Virus record (IMG/VR): IMGVR_UViG_2698536574_000031
Source: a virus
Taxonomy: Duplodnaviria > Heunggongvirae > Uroviricota > Caudoviricetes
DNA length: 38,122 nucleotides
Strand: one strand, 5' to 3'
Shown: positions 1 to 38,122 of the stretch, piece by piece
How the letters are laid out: each line of letters opens with the position of its first letter
Numbering within the stretch: the first letter of the stretch is position 1
Translations under genes and position numbers: made by a program
The notes under the pieces: model-generated
Told to the model about the DNA's origin: nothing
Seen by the model: the letters and a program-made list of their open reading frames with translations, nothing else
Databases searched by the model: none

Positions 1-1053
1 TTAAACTTCGTTTAACGCTTCCTGTATTCTTCGACCAATCCATTTCATGACCGGTACAGGCATTGAATTTCCAATGGCCTTATAACGATGAGCTGGAGAT
101 GAATTTTTCCATGGAATATCTGTATATCCATCGGGAAAACCTTGTAGCCTCTCGCATTCGGTTGGCGTCAACCTACGAACCCTTGAATATGGTGCTCTTT
201 CAACTATGAGCCCACCAGACATAGTCATGTCCTGGTTAGTTGTTCCGTTATAGCCAGCTATTACTGTGCCTGTTCGTTTTGGCAATGCTTCAAGGCAATA
301 TCGGTGCAATTTTCCTTCAATGCCTTGATCAAGAAGGGATTCGGATTTTTTCTTCTTTCCATAATAGTTTTTATCGCCCTGCGACACAGGCGGGAACTCA
401 AATAATACCTTTCCGGGATCGAGCCTTTTTCCAGCACTTGCCACAACAAACACTCTTCTGCGAGCCTGGGCGACTCCGAAATATTGGGCATCAAGTACTC
501 GCCAGGCGACGATACGCGATGGTCCAGACACAACACCAGCGTTTGCCCATCTTTTCCTTGCTGGCTGTAATGCGCAACCTGCTCCGGCCAGCGCACCAAG
601 AAAATGACCGAATGCATTGTCATGGCTACTTAAAACTCCTGTGACGTTTTCCCATACGATTATTGAGGGGGATTTATTGAGCGATGCCCGAACGGTATCT
701 ATCTGATTCGCCAGTTCAACAAAAGACAGTGTTAACTGCCCCCGTGGATCTGAAAGGCCTTTTCGTTTGCCTGACATACTGAATGCCTGACACGGAGTTC
801 CACCTACAAGAATATCTGGTGCTTCAATAAGCCCATCCCTGATACGAGGCGCAAGCAAAGCCATATCACCAAGATTTGGTATATGGGGCCAGCGATATGA
901 AAGAAGTGTTGACGGGAAGTCCTCTATTTCACTGAACCATCTGGCTTTCCAGCCAAGATTGCTCCAGGCTACTGTCGCAGCTTCAATACCACTGCATACT
1001 GAACCATAGGTTAGTGACTTATCAGACTGAAAGTAATGTTTCTTGTTCCCCAC
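1..1053 (-). CDS. DNA (cytosine-5)-methyltransferase, Dcm-like; complete, GTG start lying inside the 3' end of the upstream com-like ORF
   Basis: Translation carries C5-MTase motifs in canonical order: SVCSGIEA (motif I), GGTPCQAFSMSG (motif IV, PCQ), ENV (motif VI), QARRRVFVV (motif VIII), AIGNSMPVPV (motif X). Stop codon is at window positions 1..3. Confidence 0.85.
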   Translation of the reverse strand: MGNKKHYFQSDKSLTYGSVCSGIEAATVAWSNLGWKARWFSEIEDFPSTLLSYRWPHIPNLGDMALLAPRIRDGLIEAPDILVGGTPCQAFSMSGKRKGLSDPRGQLTLSFVELANQIDTVRASLNKSPSIIVWENVTGVLSSHDNAFGHFLGALAGAGCALQPARKRWANAGVVSGPSRIVAWRVLDAQYFGVAQARRRVFVVASAGKRLDPGKVLFEFPPVSQGDKNYYGKKKKSESLLDQGIEGKLHRYCLEALPKRTGTVIAGYNGTTNQDMTMSGGLIVERAPYSRVRRLTPTECERLQGFPDGYTDIPWKNSSPAHRYKAIGNSMPVPVMKWIGRRIQEALNEV

Positions 1054-1207: not shown

Positions 1208-1407
1208 GGCCGCATAACCTCCTGCTTTGTTGTTGATGCCTTTCTCATGCAATCGATCGACAAAAACGATCGATTCGATTTGTTTAATTGATACAACAAA
1301 TAGATTTAAAAGTCATCAACAATGATTCAGGACGGTGATTATTTACTTAAAGAAAACGAAGAGTTAGGTGGTGAAAACGATCATAAAATGATCATTTTAT
1401 TGACTTT

Positions 1408-1578
1408 TTATCCAGTGAATCTTGGGGTACACAGGATCTGCATCGCTATCCACATTGCAGTGGTGAAGTTTCGATCCTGTAATGTATTTTCATCAAGTCC
1501 TGAACGTAGCGCATTGATAATTTCTGCGCTTAATATTTCCAGACCTTTGGTATCGGGCTGTTTTTTGTTCTTGTCCAT
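1408..1578 (-). CDS. small hypothetical protein (56 aa, below ORF-track cutoff)
   Basis: Hand-translated: MDKNKKQPDTKGLEILSAEIINALRSGLDENTLQDRNFTTAMWIAMQILCTPRFTG*. ATG preceded by GAGGAAATAATC; sits just downstream of a hairpin terminator. Confidence 0.3.
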   Translation of the reverse strand: MDKNKKQPDTKGLEILSAEIINALRSGLDENTLQDRNFTTAMWIAMQILCTPRFTG

Positions 1579-1611: not shown

Positions 1612-1646
1612 ATGAAAATCAAACCGACAGGAGAAGCTGTCGGTTT
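1612..1646 (-). terminator. rho-independent terminator-like hairpin after ORF 1653..1898
   Basis: 10-bp perfect stem AAACCGACAG / CTGTCGGTTT (1621..1646) with 6-nt loop, followed on the minus strand by GATTTTCAT. Confidence 0.45.
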
Positions 1647-1652
1647 GTATTG

Positions 1653-2228: not shown

Positions 2229-2264
2229 TCCCGCCAGCCATATCATGACCGGCGGGATTTTTTT
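2229..2264 (+). terminator. hairpin plus T7 tract oriented for the + strand, abutting the esterase stop codon
   Basis: Stem TCCCGCC / GGCGGGA with 15-nt loop followed by TTTTTTT on the + strand; an A-tract precedes it on the minus strand, so it may work bidirectionally. Confidence 0.35.
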
Positions 2265-4302
2265 ATTCTGTTACCGCTTTTTTCACTTCCACCACAATGC
2301 TGTCAATCAGCACCGGGTAAGTTGCATTTTTGGTGATATCCGTTACGCGGAGTTTGTCCACCGGGAAAGTTCCTACTGGTGACTGCGTCAGGGTAAACGC
2401 GGCACCATCCTGACCATCAATAACCGGAATAACCTGAAGGCTGTTATTTCCTGCAAAACGGAAGGCCAGCGTATGCCATTCATTATCAAATGCACCAAAG
2501 GTTCCCAGTTTCTGGTTATTTGTTGCCACTTTTGCATTGTGGTACATCACATTCAGGTCTTTTGCGTCTGTCTGGATGTAGAACGATGCCAGCAGATTAT
2601 TCCCTGCATCCCCTGTCAGGGTGACACCCTGCGGCAGAGAGGAAACCGGCCAGTAAAGCGCCATGACATACTGGTTTGCCACCAGGTCGCCAGGTACTTT
2701 AAAACGACAACTGATTAAACCACCATTTTTCAGCAGTTCAGCACCAGTACCGGCATCATGATCCAGATACCAGGATGATTTACCTGTTTCCTTGGTCAGT
2801 TTCATTGCCTTACCACCTGTGCCTCCTGCATCACTGATAATTTCAGCTTTACCGCCAGCCGGCTCCCAGCCCTGGGCTTTCAGATTTCCTTCTGACTCAC
2901 TGACACGGTAAGACAGCAGTGTTGTGGTTACTGCTTCAGTTTCTGAAGGTGATGGCACTGGTGCTTCAGTTTCAGAAGATGGAACATCGGCTTTTACTGT
3001 GGTTCGCCCTGCATGAGTCAGAACAGCCGTGGCCAGACGGTCAGAAATAATACCCCGGCGCGCCCAGGCACTGAAATGGCTGGCCCGGTCCGCAGATGTC
3101 CAGGTAGCGGCACTGTTACGCCACGTTGAGCCGTAATAACCAATGGATTCAATATCCGGGTCTTCTGCCGGATTGTTGGTGGGTACATTCACGCCATTTT
3201 CATCTGTCATTAATGGAACGAAATGAATGTTTTTATCTGTTTTGTTTTTGTAGCCGCCATAGATTGCCTGGTATGCTGGTTCATTTTTCTGTTTCCAGAA
3301 ATACGTGGTATCGCCACAAATCCACGGAACGCCAGCAGCACTGCCACCGGTACACTGTTCCGCCTGTTCAGCCAGGTCTGCGCGGAATTTTTCCACCATC
3401 GCCAGAAACAGCGCAGAATGCTCCGTCGGCTTCGCATCAATATCAAACTCGCCCTGCATCCACACCACAGCAAGCAGGCGGTTTTTCGGGTTCTTCGCCA
3501 GTGCCGCTTTTGTCCGGCTGATTAAGTCCTTATACAGCGGCTTATCCACACCCCAGCGGGCTGAGTCCTCTGAAGCACCCGTGCTGTCACTGTACGTGCC
3601 GTCAGCACCCACCGTGAATGCAGAACCACCACGGCAGCAGGGAACCAGCAGAATCCCCGCATCTGCCGGAATAAACGGCAGCAGTTTTTTGGCAATGTGA
3701 AGCCCCTGACCCACGGTGCCATATTGCCCTTTAGCCACATCCGCTTTCGGGTGATTTTTTCCACTCATATCCTGCACATCATGCAGACAGTGGTCGGCCA
3801 GAATGATGTCGTTATACTGACAGGCTTTACCTCCCGGCGTGACTGTACTGCGACGGGCTAACTGCATAATACGCGGTTCGGGGCGGTCATATGTCTCCGG
3901 CAGTGGCAGACCTTCACCGTAAGCCATACCGTTTGACTGACCAGCAAGAACCACCACGTAATACCAGGAAGGGGAGCCGGAAGCAGTTTCATTTCCTGAC
4001 GGACGGGTATGTGTTTCAGCATTATCCCAGTCTGACGGTTCAGCAGTACCGGCAACATCAGCACTTAACGGAATGACCGCACCAATACCCGCTCCGGTAA
4101 TTTCCACACTCGGATCACCGGATACTGGCCTTACCCACAGGCAATCCCGGGTATTAAAACTGATGAGACAGTCAGCAAATGTCATTCCTCCTTTTGTTTC
4201 GGCCGGAGGAAAGGGAGCCTCAAGAAATGCCGCTGTACCACCGGAAACTTTAACAGTAAAGTTTCCGGGCATTGATGATAGTTGAACCCATTTGGACGTC
4301 AT
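2263..4302 (-). CDS. SGNH-hydrolase esterase, sialate O-acetylesterase (NanS/SASA)-like, with N-terminal extension and C-terminal lectin-like domain (679 aa)
   Basis: VVLAGQSNGMAYGEG matches the GQSN block of SASA/DUF303 carbohydrate esterases; about 100-aa N-terminal region and about 200-aa C-terminal Gly/Thr-rich beta-type region; co-directional with the late genes. Confidence 0.65.
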   Translation of the reverse strand: MTSKWVQLSSMPGNFTVKVSGGTAAFLEAPFPPAETKGGMTFADCLISFNTRDCLWVRPVSGDPSVEITGAGIGAVIPLSADVAGTAEPSDWDNAETHTRPSGNETASGSPSWYYVVVLAGQSNGMAYGEGLPLPETYDRPEPRIMQLARRSTVTPGGKACQYNDIILADHCLHDVQDMSGKNHPKADVAKGQYGTVGQGLHIAKKLLPFIPADAGILLVPCCRGGSAFTVGADGTYSDSTGASEDSARWGVDKPLYKDLISRTKAALAKNPKNRLLAVVWMQGEFDIDAKPTEHSALFLAMVEKFRADLAEQAEQCTGGSAAGVPWICGDTTYFWKQKNEPAYQAIYGGYKNKTDKNIHFVPLMTDENGVNVPTNNPAEDPDIESIGYYGSTWRNSAATWTSADRASHFSAWARRGIISDRLATAVLTHAGRTTVKADVPSSETEAPVPSPSETEAVTTTLLSYRVSESEGNLKAQGWEPAGGKAEIISDAGGTGGKAMKLTKETGKSSWYLDHDAGTGAELLKNGGLISCRFKVPGDLVANQYVMALYWPVSSLPQGVTLTGDAGNNLLASFYIQTDAKDLNVMYHNAKVATNNQKLGTFGAFDNEWHTLAFRFAGNNSLQVIPVIDGQDGAAFTLTQSPVGTFPVDKLRVTDITKNATYPVLIDSIVVEVKKAVTE

Positions 4303-19279: not shown

Positions 19280-20403
19280 TATTGCATTTCCTCTTTCATT
19301 TTCAGGAACTCGGCTTCGGTTTTACCCAGCAGTTTGGCGGCCGCGATATCTTCAGCCGACAGCACAGCGGTGGCAGTCTTTTTATCCGGCACGGTCACGG
19401 TGTCGGTCTGAAGGCCGGTCAGGGCCGCAACCGGCTGGCGGGCGTCAAGCTGTGCAGAAAGTGCCGCCACGCCAATCTGCCCGCCCAGTTGTTCCAGATA
19501 GCCGCGTTCACTTTTGAAGATGCGTCCTTCGGACTCGGCCTTGTCCAGCAACTGCTCCAGCGTGGTGCTGCCGTGCTGCGCCGACAGCGCAACGTATTCG
19601 GTACGCAGGGCGTTATACGTTTCAACGGGCACGTATTTCGTCAGGTCAATACTGCCGCCAGCCGGTGTGCCTTTTGCAGTTTCCAGCTCTGCCGACAGAC
19701 TGGCGACCTGTGTTTTCAGGTTGTCGTGTGCATCCGCACGGGTTTTGATCCCGGTGAGGGCAGACAGCGCTGCCGTGCCCAGCTCCGGCGTAAATTCGTC
19801 ACCGTCAGCCACGGTCAGACCGAGCGCCGTCAGCAACTGGCGTAATTGCTCATTCATGGAGGTATCCTTTAAAGGAGGGTTTAAGGCGTTATAAAGGTCA
19901 TCCGCCGACAGTGCGGCGACAGGATTCATGCCGGTCAGACCGGGGTCACCGGTAATAGCCAGCATCCGAAGTTCGACAGGTTCGCCGGTGCTCTCGTCAT
20001 AGCCAATCACCGGTGAAAACCAGGGGAATTCGTTATTACGCAGATGTTCAAGGGCCGGAGGGTTCCACTTCGGGCGCACCTCGAAACCTCGCTCTTCACT
20101 GAAGCGAAAATTCTCCGGTGAGGCCATCACAAAACCGGCAGCCGGTGCCGGATGTCCCTCAATCAGGGTCTGGTGGTTGTAGTCAATTTTCACCGGCTGA
20201 TTGAGCGCCACAACCCGGGAGACCATGCGCTCAACGGCTGCATGGTTGATCAGCCAGCCCTCGGCCGGTTTTTCCGGGCGACCGTCACGGGCCTTTACCC
20301 GACCGGCTGGCATGATCTGACACCAGTCACCGTCCCCGTCTGCGGACAGGCTGATGGCATTCAGAATGGCATAAGCAAGTTTGGGCGTGTTTTTCGTCTT
20401 CAT
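19279..20403 (-). CDS. head maturation protease/scaffold protein (Mu I-like)
   Basis: 374 aa with Ala/Glu-rich helical C-terminal half. Confidence 0.75.
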   Translation of the reverse strand: MKTKNTPKLAYAILNAISLSADGDGDWCQIMPAGRVKARDGRPEKPAEGWLINHAAVERMVSRVVALNQPVKIDYNHQTLIEGHPAPAAGFVMASPENFRFSEERGFEVRPKWNPPALEHLRNNEFPWFSPVIGYDESTGEPVELRMLAITGDPGLTGMNPVAALSADDLYNALNPPLKDTSMNEQLRQLLTALGLTVADGDEFTPELGTAALSALTGIKTRADAHDNLKTQVASLSAELETAKGTPAGGSIDLTKYVPVETYNALRTEYVALSAQHGSTTLEQLLDKAESEGRIFKSERGYLEQLGGQIGVAALSAQLDARQPVAALTGLQTDTVTVPDKKTATAVLSAEDIAAAKLLGKTEAEFLKMKEEMQ

Positions 20404-20579
20404 TCCGGCAGCATAGGCCGGGAATTTTCAGGGCGGGTTTTGCGGGATTTCAGGAAGTGCTTTCAGGGGAAAAATACAAAGGCGCTTCACGCAGATTTTA
20501 AAGCCCGTTAAATTCAGGTTAGAAAATCACGACACGCGCCTGAAGGGGGTAAGGTAATGCATTTGCATACCTTAAACAA
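20404..20579 (-). promoter_or_regulatory. 176-bp intergenic region upstream of the protease/scaffold gene; candidate activator-dependent late promoter
   Basis: Three direct TTTCAGG repeats (20426, 20448, 20461), a near-palindrome ATGCATTTGCAT and a CCCCC run; in Mu the I gene has its own C-dependent promoter. Confidence 0.3.
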
Positions 20580-21053: not shown

Positions 21054-21174
21054 ATTGCCTCCGCATAAAGGATGAATATAAAATAAACAGGCGGTCAGTG
21101 TACGCTTAACTGGTAAAGTCGGTGCCTGCCTCCGGGTGGATCATGTATGCGGGTTCGACCCCCGCCACTGACCG

Positions 21175-22506
21175 TTAATCAATATATCCTTCCAGTACCT
21201 CAAGCATTCCGCCCCGGATATCCGATTTCAGCTTATCCATATTGATAACCCGGTAAGCATTAACAATCACATCCAGTTTATCCGGCTGACGCTTCAGGCT
21301 GTACGGTGCATTAACGGCAATCTGCACACTGCCATCCTGATTTTCCACGATATACATCAGATTGTTGTGCCGTTTGTCCCACAGTACCGCTTTTGGCCTT
21401 GCCAGCATTGCCGGTAAGCGCCCGAAATCCTCCGGCGTCAGGGCGATACCGTCATTCTGATGTTTCATGCTGTCCGCATGGAGCACATTTTTACCGCTCA
21501 TCGCCAGCAGGCGGGCCGGTGGCGTTCCCGTCCGGCTTTCCACCGCCTGCGCAATGCTTTCGGTCATAAAGCCCAGCGTGCGGATATCGTTACCGCCTCG
21601 CCGGGTTTTCATGATGTTTTTTGCCCAGATGCGGAACGCCAGCTGCCGCTCCGGGCTGTTGTTCATCTCCTGAACCACCATTTCCCGCAGCGCCGGGCTT
21701 TTCACCTCGATCAGTTTACGGATCAGCGCCTGGTCTGTGCCGAACGCCGCCGAACCGGGGTTATATGACCAGCCCACATCCGGTGTCATGGTTCTGGTGC
21801 CATCTGAATATGTGGTCACCGGCATTTCTCTGACTTCCCCGGTCTGCTTATCCACGCCAACCTCAACATTGCGGGTGGAGAGATGATCCTGACCGGATGA
21901 AACGGATAACCCCATTGCATCCAGACGGGCCTGAGACAATGGCCGGACACGGCAGCGGCAGTTCCAGCCATTGGGTGGGTAGTGTGTATTCCAGAACGGA
22001 TCGTCATAGCGGAATACCAGCCCGTTAAGGGCGGAATGCGCCGGGCGGGTGCGGCTGTCCATCACCGCCACATACTGCCAGAACGGATGCGTGTCCGTGT
22101 TGTTCATCATCTGCGTGTAACGCCCGGCATTGTAAGCCACGCGGGTGTTCACGTTGTAAATCAGCGCCAGACGGCGGGGATTACCCAGCTGCACTTCTTC
22201 CGCGTTACCGGCGCTGTCCACCACAATCTGCTTTCCCCACCATCCCAGCTTTTGCAGGCGGGGGGTCAGTGTGCGGATAAATGCTTTCTGTGAAATCCCC
22301 TCATCAACAGCACGCTGCACTTCCGCCTGTAGTGTGGTCAGTACGTCCAGGCGTGCCACTTTTGCCGCCGTGAATGAACGGGCATGAACATCTGCGTTTG
22401 TTTCGAACCAGTTCCAGCTGATATGCGCCCCTTTGGCGCGGAAGTATGCCACCGCCTCTTTTGAGGGAAGGGTGGCGGCATAACCTAAATCAATCCCCTG
22501 TGCCAT
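21175..22506 (-). CDS. head morphogenesis protein (Mu F-like)
   Basis: 443 aa directly downstream of portal. Confidence 0.75.
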   Translation of the reverse strand: MAQGIDLGYAATLPSKEAVAYFRAKGAHISWNWFETNADVHARSFTAAKVARLDVLTTLQAEVQRAVDEGISQKAFIRTLTPRLQKLGWWGKQIVVDSAGNAEEVQLGNPRRLALIYNVNTRVAYNAGRYTQMMNNTDTHPFWQYVAVMDSRTRPAHSALNGLVFRYDDPFWNTHYPPNGWNCRCRVRPLSQARLDAMGLSVSSGQDHLSTRNVEVGVDKQTGEVREMPVTTYSDGTRTMTPDVGWSYNPGSAAFGTDQALIRKLIEVKSPALREMVVQEMNNSPERQLAFRIWAKNIMKTRRGGNDIRTLGFMTESIAQAVESRTGTPPARLLAMSGKNVLHADSMKHQNDGIALTPEDFGRLPAMLARPKAVLWDKRHNNLMYIVENQDGSVQIAVNAPYSLKRQPDKLDVIVNAYRVINMDKLKSDIRGGMLEVLEGYID

Positions 22507-27843: not shown

Positions 27844-28306
27844 CCGCCGAACGGCGGGCCTCAAGGCCGGGGAGTTTCACCCCCTTTGAATAAATCCAGC
27901 GGATATACTGCTTACAGGACGCGGGCATCTGTCCGGCATTAATAAGGCGCAGAAGCGTGGAGTTGCGGAAGTTCGTTTCACCGGCCCAGAAGATCCACGA
28001 AGCCAGCGCCACCGTCTGACCACGGGTAAGCGGCACCTGAACACGCCGATCAATGGCCGCAAAGGCCCATTTCATGTCCTTTTCCAGTAGTTCCAGGCAT
28101 TCTTCATCCGTCAGGGTCATACCCGGTTTCACATCCGGGCCGGTATGGCCGTAACAGATGGTGGGTGTACCGGTGGGATCGATATACGTGGAGTTTTCTT
28201 TCCCTTCCCAGTAACCGGTGTAATGCGTGGCAATCGTGAACGTCCCGGCACCGGCCAGAACAAGGGCAATCAGCTTTTTACGCAGTGGTGCGGGGAGTTT
28301 TGGCAT
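27806..28306 (-). CDS. SAR endolysin (T4-lysozyme-like)
   Basis: N-terminal weakly hydrophobic Gly/Ala-rich signal-anchor KLIALVLAGAGTFTIA, then catalytic-region blocks EGKEN...TICYGHTG...FRNSTLLRLIN...RRSADEWLC. Confidence 0.8.
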   Translation of the reverse strand: MPKLPAPLRKKLIALVLAGAGTFTIATHYTGYWEGKENSTYIDPTGTPTICYGHTGPDVKPGMTLTDEECLELLEKDMKWAFAAIDRRVQVPLTRGQTVALASWIFWAGETNFRNSTLLRLINAGQMPASCKQYIRWIYSKGVKLPGLEARRSADEWLCRYDLPKV

Positions 28307-28377
28307 TGTTACGCTGTCTCATGATGTTCTCTGAGTCAGCGTAACGGTGAAGGAAAGGCGGCAGGCTTTGCGGAATA

Positions 28378-28803
28378 TCAGAAAAGTGGCGGTTGCGTTC
28401 TTGCCAGATGCAGACGGCGCTGTTCGCGTATGACGGTATAAATCTGGGTTTCTGACATCCGGTAATGGCGGCGAAGGGATTCAATTTTCTCGCCCCGGTC
28501 CCAGCGCGAAAATATCTCATTGTTTCGCAGCTCGGCAAAGAGAGATTCCCCGACAGGCAGGTAATAACCCCGTCCGCCCATATAGGCTGCCTGAGCCGCA
28601 GCCACCTTGCGTGCCAGTTTACCGGCCAGTACCGGCTCAATCCCCTGACGCTGAAGTTCTGCGCCGGTGACTTCAACCAGTTCTGACAGGGTCCGCGGCC
28701 AGTTCTTTTTGAGAACATCATCAGGGATGTCATCAAGGCGGTCGATAAGGGCGTGCAGTTGCTCACTGTCACCACCAAACATGCTCATCTGAGTTTCTGC
28801 CAT
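28378..28803 (-). CDS. Mor/C-family transcriptional activator (single copy; sits at the C position before lys)
   Basis: 141 aa; C-terminal HTH ...LRRHYRMSETQIYTVIREQRR and central YYLPVG block; preceded by a terminator. Confidence 0.7.
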   Translation of the reverse strand: MAETQMSMFGGDSEQLHALIDRLDDIPDDVLKKNWPRTLSELVEVTGAELQRQGIEPVLAGKLARKVAAAQAAYMGGRGYYLPVGESLFAELRNNEIFSRWDRGEKIESLRRHYRMSETQIYTVIREQRRLHLARTQPPLF

Positions 28804-36031: not shown

Positions 36032-38122
36032 TCAGGCCAGCGGGTCATTTTCTTTTAATTTCGCTTCCAGCAACTGCAATCCCCGCTGGAAATTACGCTC
36101 GTATTCTTCATCAGGTTCATCGTCAGCGACCGGTTGCTGAACGGTCACCGTATTACCCACAGGGCGGTATATGTTTTCCAGCCAGGGCTCCTGCGGCTTG
36201 TGCTCCAGCACGTTGACAACCTCATCCTCGGCATCACGGATTTTTTCCTCTGCGCGTTTACGCATGCCTTTAAGGCGTTGCTGCTGTTTGTAGTATTCCG
36301 CGCTAACCGGGAAGGCTTCGCGTTTATTACCGTCCCATACCGCCTCGCAAATCACGCTGCCATCCAGGCGACGTACGGTAATTCGTTCGGCATCATGAAT
36401 GTCATAGCTGATAAGCACCTTACGACCATGCTCGTCACGCAGCTCGGGCGCGTAGTAAATATTATTCAGCCAGCGTATTTCACAGCGTCTTACAGGGCGT
36501 TCCACCATCGGCCGGAACATATCCCGCAGCTCAACATCGGACAGCCATTCAATTTCCGTGTCCTCTTCCGCCAGGCGTTTTTTTCTGAACTCCGCCGGGC
36601 TGTAATGCTTGCCGTTCGGCTTCACCGGTAATTCATCGTGCGGCCGGTTGTTGTACCACTCAACACCGTCACGAATGGCATCAATCAGTTCAGACCAGGA
36701 CGGTAAATCACGCATCGCTGACTGCTGCCGGGCGTTCAGCCGTTTGCCCTGTTGCAGGGCAGTAAATGCCGAGCGTAAATCGCGGTTGGTTTTGCGTAAC
36801 GTCTCGCGATCTGCACCTTTCCCGAAATAGGTGCGGTATTTACGGGCTATGCGCATCGGTAATGTGCGGTTAAGCCGTTCGATAATGCCTCGTCCCTGCG
36901 GATTACCGGCAATCCCGGTCGGGTGATTAATCCCCAGTCGCGGCAGTATCCCCACAACCTCCTTATCCAGGATGTCGGCGGTTTCCCCGGAGCCGTTATC
37001 CGAGTAATACAGAAACGGTTTGCCGTGATGGCGAATGCCGTGCTGTATGGCACCGGCTACGGCGAAAACATTTTCAGCCAGGTCAAGGCTCCAGCCCACC
37101 ACAAAGCGCGTGCCACCGTCGATAACAAAGGTCACTTCCGGTGCAAATGGCCGACCGTGAACCGGGTGTGCGCATTTCATCTTCATGCCGTGACCGTCAC
37201 CAATCCAGACATAATTCACCGGCATTCTGGACCAGTCGCGGCGCGTGAATCCCTCAAGCTGACGGTATTCACTGCCTGTCACCCGGCCTTTTTGTTTCAC
37301 CACTTCCGGCAGTTTCTTCATTGCGCGGCGAATGGTGTCATAAGAGGGCATGATATCGAGCATATAAGGCTCATCAGCGTGCCGGAGCCGCCATTCAGCA
37401 ACAAAATCCTCGTAAGCCTCGGTCATTGGTCGGCCGTTTGACTGGCGATACTGCGCCAGAAATTCGGGCAGCCAGTTAATATCTTCGGCTTTTATTTCCT
37501 GGCGTTTACCCGGTGCCAGTAAAAGCAGGCGTTCAGCGGCGTTCTGTGCCTTGTTAAAGGCCGCAATCCATCGCTTCAGCGTGATTTCACTCAACGCACG
37601 GCTGTTTCCCTTTTTGGCGTTCGCCGTCTCAACCATTGCCACAATGCGCTCGTCCAGCTGTGAACGTGCCAGGTTGTCAACGATAAACCGGATAGCCTTC
37701 GCGCAGCTGAAACCGGGTTGTTGCGCGACTTTCATCACTTCGCTGACGATCGCGATTCGTGCATCAGCCACCTGGCGCTGGTTTTCAGTCAGGGCATTGA
37801 GGCGTTCGACCATCAGTTGTGGTGATCCGCGATATGCCTCCACCGCATCAACCACGTCAGATGAGCGTCTGGCCTTTGTCACCACCGGAGCCGGTGATTC
37901 ATCGGCTTTTTGCGTCATCAGTTGCAGGGCATAACGTTCACGTAATGCCTGCTGCGTCACTTCAGGTAAACAGTCGATGCTGTATTCAGTTGCTTTAGAG
38001 CCTGAGCGACGACGGGAACAACAGCTTTTCCCTTGTACGTAACGTTGTAATGCCTGGCGAATACCTTTTGTTGTAGCAGGCATTCCGGGCGCGCCAATCA
38101 GTTCTTTTGCAATGACATACAT
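36032..38122 (-). CDS. A: MuA-like DDE transposase; start codon at the window edge
   Basis: 696 aa; N-terminal end-binding region MYVIAKELIGAPGMPATTKGIRQALQ aligns with the recalled start of MuA; central retroviral-integrase-like catalytic core. Confidence 0.9.
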   Translation of the reverse strand: MYVIAKELIGAPGMPATTKGIRQALQRYVQGKSCCSRRRSGSKATEYSIDCLPEVTQQALRERYALQLMTQKADESPAPVVTKARRSSDVVDAVEAYRGSPQLMVERLNALTENQRQVADARIAIVSEVMKVAQQPGFSCAKAIRFIVDNLARSQLDERIVAMVETANAKKGNSRALSEITLKRWIAAFNKAQNAAERLLLLAPGKRQEIKAEDINWLPEFLAQYRQSNGRPMTEAYEDFVAEWRLRHADEPYMLDIMPSYDTIRRAMKKLPEVVKQKGRVTGSEYRQLEGFTRRDWSRMPVNYVWIGDGHGMKMKCAHPVHGRPFAPEVTFVIDGGTRFVVGWSLDLAENVFAVAGAIQHGIRHHGKPFLYYSDNGSGETADILDKEVVGILPRLGINHPTGIAGNPQGRGIIERLNRTLPMRIARKYRTYFGKGADRETLRKTNRDLRSAFTALQQGKRLNARQQSAMRDLPSWSELIDAIRDGVEWYNNRPHDELPVKPNGKHYSPAEFRKKRLAEEDTEIEWLSDVELRDMFRPMVERPVRRCEIRWLNNIYYAPELRDEHGRKVLISYDIHDAERITVRRLDGSVICEAVWDGNKREAFPVSAEYYKQQQRLKGMRKRAEEKIRDAEDEVVNVLEHKPQEPWLENIYRPVGNTVTVQQPVADDEPDEEYERNFQRGLQLLEAKLKENDPLA

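Follow-up and report, generated by a model that had tools for sequence, protein, structure and literature searches.

Two GATC sites 13 bp apart, upstream of com in a Mu-like prophage of Escherichia coli, are by sequence comparison homologous to the methylation-sensitive OxyR operator of Mu mom, a relationship stronger than analogy. The locus is homologous to a switch that is already known; its architecture is shortened and its cargo differs, and its function is predicted from that kinship. With moderate confidence, we propose that the com promoter carries an OxyR operator and that the pair forms its Dam-sensitive half, such that transcription would be off when the sites are unmethylated and permitted when they are methylated, and Com would in turn license translation of a DNA methyltransferase. 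OxyR binding, Dam sensitivity, the position of the promoter and the direction of the effect are all predicted by homology. The mechanism itself is already known from Mu, agn43 and gtr, and this locus mostly adds a new place to it; a search of the literature gave no report of unmethylated GATC sites at com or mom of Mu-like prophages in E. coli, or of OxyR control there.

The com operon and its cytosine methyltransferase

The window, by which we mean the whole stretch of 38,122 nucleotides that was analysed, holds a Mu-like E. coli prophage in inverted orientation; the genes are on the minus strand (Table 1). Positions 1-3 kb match 'inserted Mu-like phage' regions in Stx-phage records at 95.6%, and a near-identical E. 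coli prophage with gene-by-gene annotation has a layout that agrees with that of the window. The flagged region is intergenic DNA 5' of com at the phage's right end, the same place that Pmom occupies in Mu. Since a strong intrinsic terminator closes the late transcript that precedes it, com needs a promoter of its own. A plus-strand ORF at 1322-1615 was judged not to be a real gene and is a frameshifted pseudogene in the annotation of relatives.

Table 1. Features of the prophage and of the com-upstream region, in window coordinates
Feature	Position	Strand	Remarks
C5 DNA cytosine methyltransferase, in mom position	1..1053	-	Pfam PF00145, E = 1.6e-42; GTG start 1053
com, zinc-ribbon translational activator, 61 aa	1022..1207	-	Pfam PF10122, E = 5.8e-13
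Predicted RNA stem CCCCAC/GUGGGG over methyltransferase start codon	1048..1079	-	z = -1.5, weak
Shine-Dalgarno AGGAGG of com	1218..1223	-	read from sequence
Best candidate com promoter, TTGTCG (1263-1258), 19-bp spacer, CATCAA (1238-1233)	1233..1263	-	weak in window allele
Perfect inverted repeat AATCGATCG-N7-CGATCGATT, 9-bp arms	1251..1275	.	includes both proximal GATC sites
Proximal GATC, equivalent to GATC III of Mu Pmom	1255..1258	.	51 nt 5' of com ATG; reads CGATCGAT without change in 10 diverged enterobacterial com loci
Proximal GATC, counterpart of Mu Pmom GATC II	1268..1271	.	64 nt 5' of com ATG; 13 bp from other site; in 35/35 E. coli-type com loci
Predicted 37-bp OxyR-type operator	1256..1292	-	consensus score 13/20
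Predicted OxyR half-site B, ATCGTTTTTGTCGAT	1270-1256	-	7/10
Predicted OxyR half-site A, ATCAATTAAACAAAT	1292-1278	-	6/10
Predicted alternative upstream OxyR half-site	1301-1287	-	7/10; 31 bp from B
Alternative candidate promoter ATGACT-17-TATCAA	1288..1316	-	conserved in E. coli types A, B and C; weak consensus match
Distal GATC beside palindrome (TTATGATCG)	1379..1382	.	11 bp from 1390 site
Distal 18-bp perfect palindrome ATAAAATGATCATTTTAT, with GATC 1390-1393	1383..1400	.	in E. coli 'type A' com-upstream regions only
Orphan -35 hexamer TTGACT, divergent from com	1400..1405	+	-10 (TAGGAT in relatives) lost at junction 1419/1420
56-aa ORF	1408..1578	-	no Pfam match; joined by deletion to com-upstream module
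Strong intrinsic terminator	1620..1647	-	end of upstream late (tail-fibre) transcript
Tail-fibre, tail and head genes	beyond terminator 1647-1620	-	
Single C-like activator	28378-28803		39% identity to Mu C, 27% to Mor
Transposase A	36032-38122		

The com product is 49% identical to Mu Com and is named Com in the near-identical genome. Its start is the ATG at 1207, supported by the annotation of a relative and by the alignment to Mu Com; this ATG, with its AGGAGG at 1223-1218, was preferred to a TTG at 1252, which was rejected. The second gene of the operon, which overlaps com by 32 nt, does not encode Mom; its product is a C5 methylase with a distant match to M.HhaI and M.HaeIII. Homology to mom-bearing relatives spans com and a common start, GTG GGG AAC A, and then stops (junction at window 1039-1053), so that the methyltransferase appears to have been slotted directly behind the initiation region of mom. 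The swap preserved com, the gene overlap and the predicted hairpin at the start codon, and mom and the C5 methyltransferase both circulate in E. coli on otherwise near-identical com modules. The sequence of the stem region (1048-1079) is likewise common to the mom-bearing relatives. In Mu, a translation-inhibition hairpin covers the start of mom and is opened by Com; the predicted stem resembles it. Behind closely related com genes of Salmonella and Yersinia, the cargo is Mom, an N6/N4 methyltransferase or a 350-aa C5 methyltransferase (L089, L091, L092, L094). Just 5' of com, the Yersinia locus carries two hok/gef toxin genes as well.

Several other features of the prophage were observed in passing. 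A 679-aa protein of the tail-fibre region (window 2263-4302) corresponds to DUF6645 in a relative, and its 3' part is about 85% identical to Stx-phage genes annotated as 9-O-acetyl-N-acetylneuraminic acid deacetylase (yjhS/NanS-like). A 'tRNA-OTHER' is annotated in a relative in the gap between head-morphogenesis genes; ARAGORN and Rfam gave no match at all for the window equivalent at about 21060-21175. Neither a separate Mor nor a middle operon is present between the gemA-like gene and the activator.

A local cluster of GATC sites

A sequence-only reading of this DNA had drawn attention to GATC sites at 1255, 1268, 1379 and 1390, and all four are confirmed (1255-1258, 1268-1271, 1379-1382 and 1390-1393); further sites lie at 1435 and 1473. 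That reading set the four sites within about 150 bp against about 0.6 expected by chance. At the density of the window the expectation is about 0.47, and the excess holds locally but is not significant window-wide. The sites do exceed the local background, as the reading had allowed they might not: at 33% G+C, 0.38 would be expected per 150 bp (P = 0.0006, about ten-fold), and the six sites within 273 bp compare with 0.92 expected locally. Under a uniform null, some 150-bp stretch of the 38 kb holds four GATC in about 65-70% of trials, and six within 225 bp has a P of about 0.07. Over the window as a whole GATC is mildly depleted (120 observed versus 151 +/- 12 in shuffles). The cluster is real and locally enriched, but the bare count is not compelling window-wide, and what the cluster means follows from homology and not from that count.

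The palindromes noticed at the same time needed some correction. Around the proximal sites, TCGATCGA (1253-1260) and CGATCG (1266-1271) are present as reported and together make up the perfect inverted repeat at 1251-1275, although not next to the com start, since the ATG at 1207 puts the proximal GATC pair 51 and 64 nt upstream of com. The palindrome at the distal sites, given as 14 bp, is indeed perfect but extends to 18 bp (ATAAAATGATCATTTTAT, 1383-1400) and is the longest perfect palindrome of the window. An 18-bp perfect palindrome arose somewhere in the window in 11 of 60 shuffles (18%).

A predicted OxyR operator at the proximal pair

OxyR sites were scored against a 37-bp consensus, ATAGnTnnnAnCTAT-N7-ATAGnTnnnAnCTAT, with a maximum of 20, in the Toledano form. 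With the register set by the GATC pair, window 1256-1292 scores 13/20, as does the known site of Mu, which is tied-best in the Mu genome; agn43 scores 14/20 and the Salmonella and Yersinia relatives 13-15/20. The consensus is printed with an apparent typographical error in one source (PMC2909390). Four of the five window positions that score at least 13 lie within 1256-1323. In shuffles of the 200-bp intergenic region, a maximum of at least 13 was reached with P = 0.15, and the match is modest given the local A+T richness; the argument rests on homology and not on the score. The 13-bp GATC pair corresponds to one OxyR half-site, ATAGnTnnnAnCTAT, in which the outer ATAG/CTAT appear as ATCG/CGAT. 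The arms of the inverted repeat around the pair reach 5 bp past this half-site, an extension that OxyR does not require.

Conservation across com loci

com loci were sampled at one genome per species, to which Salmonella and Yersinia Com proteins were added. Among 80 loci from many phyla, the 13-bp GATC pair occurs in Enterobacterales only; it was not found in Neisseria, Acinetobacter, Methylophaga, Haemophilus or the other non-enterobacterial loci of this set. Haemophilus, Pasteurella and Rodentibacter loci have at most one GATC within 250 nt 5' of com, and Neisseria has none. Every enterobacterial lineage carries the 13-bp pair 5' of com except L011 and L012. The latter has a GATC pair at 18-bp spacing, and L011 has one GATC before a TATCAT -10, its GATC I and II having been lost by apparent recombination between GATCGAT repeats. 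L011 is labelled Vagococcus sp., a label that probably reflects contamination, since the sequence is clearly enterobacterial and nearly identical to Salmonella L010.

The pair and its 13-bp spacing are kept in E. coli, Salmonella, Yersinia, Citrobacter, Apirhabdus and Mu, and both proximal sites are present in 35/35 E. coli-type loci. When 10 diverged lineages are compared with the pair as anchor, cGATC (II) and cGATCgat (III) are invariant and the spacer and flanks vary. Two layouts can be distinguished. The Mu layout is found in Mu, Apirhabdus and one further Enterobacteriaceae isolate, and a short layout, with GATC III 51-57 nt from the ATG, in Salmonella, Yersinia, Citrobacter and the E. 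coli group; in Mu, GATC III and the ATG are separated by 74 nt, which include the C site, the T-run, the -10 and the leader, and in the short class by 47-53 nt with no C site. Judged from these alignments, a Dam/OxyR-type module 5' of com is conserved over Enterobacterales, with cargo and neighbouring DNA freely exchanged.

Comparison with known methylation-sensitive operators

Mu mom is under Dam and OxyR control (PMC2909390; PMC4461284 reference 10), and the binding site of its activator C lies apart from the established OxyR site (PMC4461284). In the Mu genome, Pmom reads in the order GATC I, 18 bp, GATC II, 13 bp, GATC III, TTATgccccaATAA (the C site), a T-run, TAAGAT and com. The window shares with Mu the AATCGATCG-N8-GATCGATT context and the 13-bp spacing of GATC II and III, the OxyR score of 13/20, a right-end operon that starts with com overlapping a DNA-modification gene, and a start codon of the second gene that is predicted to lie in a hairpin. 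Unlike Mu, it has two of the three GATC sites, with AATT at the place of site I, and its GATC III lies 51 nt from the com ATG as against 78. It also lacks a C-binding site, the operator abuts the presumed core promoter, its cargo is a C5 cytosine methyltransferase and not Mom, and it has a single C-like activator with no separate Mor. The comparison with Mu mom made in the sequence-only reading therefore stands for the proximal pair, on the grounds of the 13-bp spacing of GATC II/III, the fit to the OxyR consensus and the invariance among enterobacterial com loci.

In E. coli, agn43 (flu) is phase-variable and has an OxyR repressor site with three GATC. Its core, TCGATCGTTTnTnTCGATCGAT, is identical to the window at 21/29 positions and to the Salmonella relative L091 at 24/29. 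As in the window, GATC II and III are 13 bp apart and the operator adjoins the core promoter, which for the window is presumed; agn43 differs in its three GATC sites versus two and in a strong promoter, TTGTCC-17-TAGAAT, immediately 5' of the operator. At gtr of P22 and Salmonella, a GATC pair 13 bp apart lies in one OxyR half-site and methylation abolishes OxyR binding (PMC2909390). There, too, the function is a prophage-borne modification, and GATC3/GATC4 stand at -46/-33 (PMC2909390), compared with about -45/-32 in the window if the -10 is at 1238-1233. The gtr region has three half-sites, two GATC pairs and alternative activating and repressing positions, whereas the window has one pair in an OxyR-like site.

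Replacement of mom is itself not new, as FluMu Hin1523, Pnm1 Nme1821, Hia5 and phage B3 carry a DNA methyltransferase in its stead and keep com and a presumed Com-dependent control (PMC3299994). These are adenine methyltransferases with no upstream GATC/OxyR module seen, whereas the window combines a C5 enzyme with a retained operator of the enterobacterial type.

Position of the com promoter

A sigma-70 consensus scan of 1000-2300 returned no promoter, and the window allele has no recognisable one 5' of com. Candidates were ranked with a crude sigma-70 matrix, which recovered the agn43 promoter as a control. In sister alleles, TATCAT or TATCAA replaces the CATCAA of the window, and in the E. 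coli variant L008 the resulting TTGTCG-19-TATCAT is the top-scoring promoter. All four E. coli-group alleles have (C/T)ATCA(A/T) 16 nt past GATC III. In the Salmonella, Yersinia and Citrobacter relatives, TATCAT, TATACT or TATAAT lies 7 nt past GATC III, and this -10 ranks first or tied first in 4/6 relatives (Salmonella L010, L092 and L094 and Yersinia L089) and second in Citrobacter L009 and Salmonella L091. The E. coli group has TGAGAA or TGATAA at that place, TGAGAA in the window. A -10 at 1238-1233 would put the GATC pair at about -45/-32, and ATGACT-17-TATCAA would put the operator just past the start, as in agn43; with both candidates the operator presumably touches the core promoter.

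The late promoters of this phage in front of lys and protease (I) (28306-28378; 20403-20500) have a box, CCGCAAAnCCnGCC, exactly 30 nt 5' of a TAyGCT -10. Presumably it serves the single C-like activator. A scan upstream of com did not find this late box, and a Mu-type C site (TTAT-N6-ATAA / ATAACC) was not found between GATC III and the -10, where there is no room for one. Two further elements were considered and rejected. ATAATCACCGTCC (1341-1329) resembles a Mu C box, but its distance to any -10 is wrong and it falls in the most variable stretch among the alleles. A distal TTATG...ACCAC...T-run TAAGTA, taken as the true Pmom core, is lacking or diverged in types B and C and has a poor promoter score.

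The distal pair, its palindrome and a deletion

The distribution of the distal palindrome was followed in 35 E. coli-type loci, a sample that was anchored on the com coding sequence and is hence unbiased. It is present in 23/35 and absent from 12/35, and is perfectly conserved among type A alleles; it is lacking from type B alleles, which are diverged homologues, and in type C it is deleted. Loci with and without the palindrome alike have the proximal pair, and mom and the C5 methyltransferase are each found as cargo in both classes.

The final base of the palindrome is the first base of the plus-strand TTGACT, and in type A relatives this hexamer belongs to a predicted promoter, TTGACT-16-TAGGAT, that is directed away from com to a small zinc-ribbon ORF. 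Compared with L008, about 450 bp are deleted from the window at junction 1419/1420; this took away the divergent -10 and brought the 56-aa ORF into fusion with the com-upstream module. Salmonella L092 keeps the counterpart of the 1390 GATC with TTGACT-16-TAAGAT and has neither the palindrome nor the second GATC. Given the distribution among loci, the adjoining divergent promoter and the deletion, the distal GATCs more plausibly belong to the control region of the neighbouring module, truncated in the window, than to a conserved part of the switch. The perfect conservation of the palindrome in type A alleles nevertheless hints at some function. No second copy was found in the window, and the 22 matches in viral contigs comprise 18 from the same com-upstream region and 4 from unrelated phages. 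Comparison with Fur, IHF and other regulator motifs, made by eye only, gave nothing convincing.

In the relatives, the divergent promoter has a GATC beside its -35 and another across its -10, read as TAGGATC in L007 (1860-1887) and as TAAGATC in Salmonella L092. L007 also has, at 1939-2044 between com and the zinc-ribbon ORF, a predicted minus-strand promoter with a strong terminator about 50 nt on, an arrangement that suggests a short RNA antisense to the leader of the zinc-ribbon gene.

Proposed mechanism and alternative explanations

In the mechanism that we favour, OxyR would bind the operator when both GATC sites are unmethylated and com transcription would be blocked, since the operator overlaps or abuts the weak candidate com promoter. 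Dam methylation of the pair would exclude OxyR and permit transcription. Translation of the methyltransferase would additionally need Com, because a hairpin kept over from the mom version is predicted to enclose its GTG start.

The inverted repeat at 1251-1275 might instead be the operator of another dimeric protein, such as the C-like late activator or some other phage or host regulator, with the GATC sites incidental or modulating. Its perfect 9-bp arms run 5 bp past the 15-bp OxyR half-site, with the same extension in Mu and Yersinia, a C-type box was not found elsewhere 5' of com although a late modification function is expected to need the late activator, and the candidate -10 at 1238-1233 puts the centre of the repeat near -37. 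Yet the lys and protease boxes (CCGCAAAnCCnGCC) are G+C-rich and unlike the repeat, the Salmonella and Citrobacter relatives lack the arm extension and keep the CGATCG cores alone, and the homologous segment of Mu is an established OxyR site with the C site elsewhere (PMC4461284), all of which makes this reading rather unlikely. A role of the repeat as RNA, folded into a hairpin within an extended com leader and with an effect on stability or translation, seems less probable still. Such a leader could start from ATGACT-17-TATCAA (1316-1288) or from the T-run and TAAGTA at about 1349; the 9-bp stem has a predicted energy of -11.4 kcal/mol, every E. coli variant keeps the upstream block TATTTGTTGTATCAAT, and the window allele has no good promoter downstream of the repeat. 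The stem reaches a z of only -1.5, however, and two palindromic copies of CGATCG pair by construction. Moreover, the spacer varies while the GATC sites are invariant, there is no Rfam match in 900-1700 or in the whole window, and the best -10 of the Salmonella, Yersinia and Citrobacter relatives is located downstream of the repeat, which would leave the repeat untranscribed there.

The earlier reading had suggested that the four sites could be one methylation-sensitive switch, which is not supported for the distal pair. A pap-type Lrp-Dam switch has two GATC about 102 bp apart, each within an Lrp site, and a PapI-like co-regulator; here the distal-to-proximal GATC distances are 108-135 bp, and a PapI-like gene was not noticed. 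A single two-site switch of the pap or gtr type, in which all four (or six) GATC take part and a regulator shifts between distal and proximal positions with methylation, would fit the local excess of sites (6 in 273 bp) and the Salmonella locus L094, which also has four GATC 5' of com together with a C5 methyltransferase. It would also have a precedent in gtr, where two 13-bp GATC pairs occupy two OxyR positions (PMC2909390). But the distal spacing is 11 bp and not 13, no OxyR half-site of at least 7/10 overlaps the distal pair, that pair is missing from 12/35 loci that keep com and either cargo, and the pairs lie about 110 bp apart with no intervening in-register array of half-sites; we give this possibility very little credence. 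Equally slight is the probability that the cluster has no regulatory meaning and reflects chance together with the self-similar ATCG/CGAT composition of a mosaic junction. Four GATC in 150 bp do fall somewhere in 38 kb in about 65% of random placements, an 18-bp palindrome appears in 18% of shuffles, and deletions and swaps of modules concentrate in this region. Against chance, the GATC sites and their 13-bp spacing are invariant across lineages while the surrounding bases diverge, and the sites share homology with an operator that has been proven by experiment.

Implications

The preferred reading, a Dam-sensitive OxyR operator on the com promoter, invites a wider and doubtful conjecture about the short class of com cassettes (E. 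coli Sp18-like, Salmonella, Yersinia and Citrobacter): that these have lost the C site, carry the Dam/OxyR operator on the core promoter, as agn43 and gtr do, and form an activator-independent, lysogen-expressed and possibly phase-variable modification module under the control of host Dam and OxyR. If this were true, a prophage-borne epigenetic switch would drive a second epigenetic mark, with a cassette of Mom, an N6/N4 methyltransferase or a C5 methyltransferase. The C-activator step of the Mu scheme is apparently missing in one clade, which makes phase-variable expression in the lysogen directly testable. Should the operator act as it does in Mu, a prophage cytosine methyltransferase would be gated by Dam and OxyR of the host, and the adenine-methylation state of the host would thereby be linked to a cytosine mark and to the anti-restriction protection of phage DNA.
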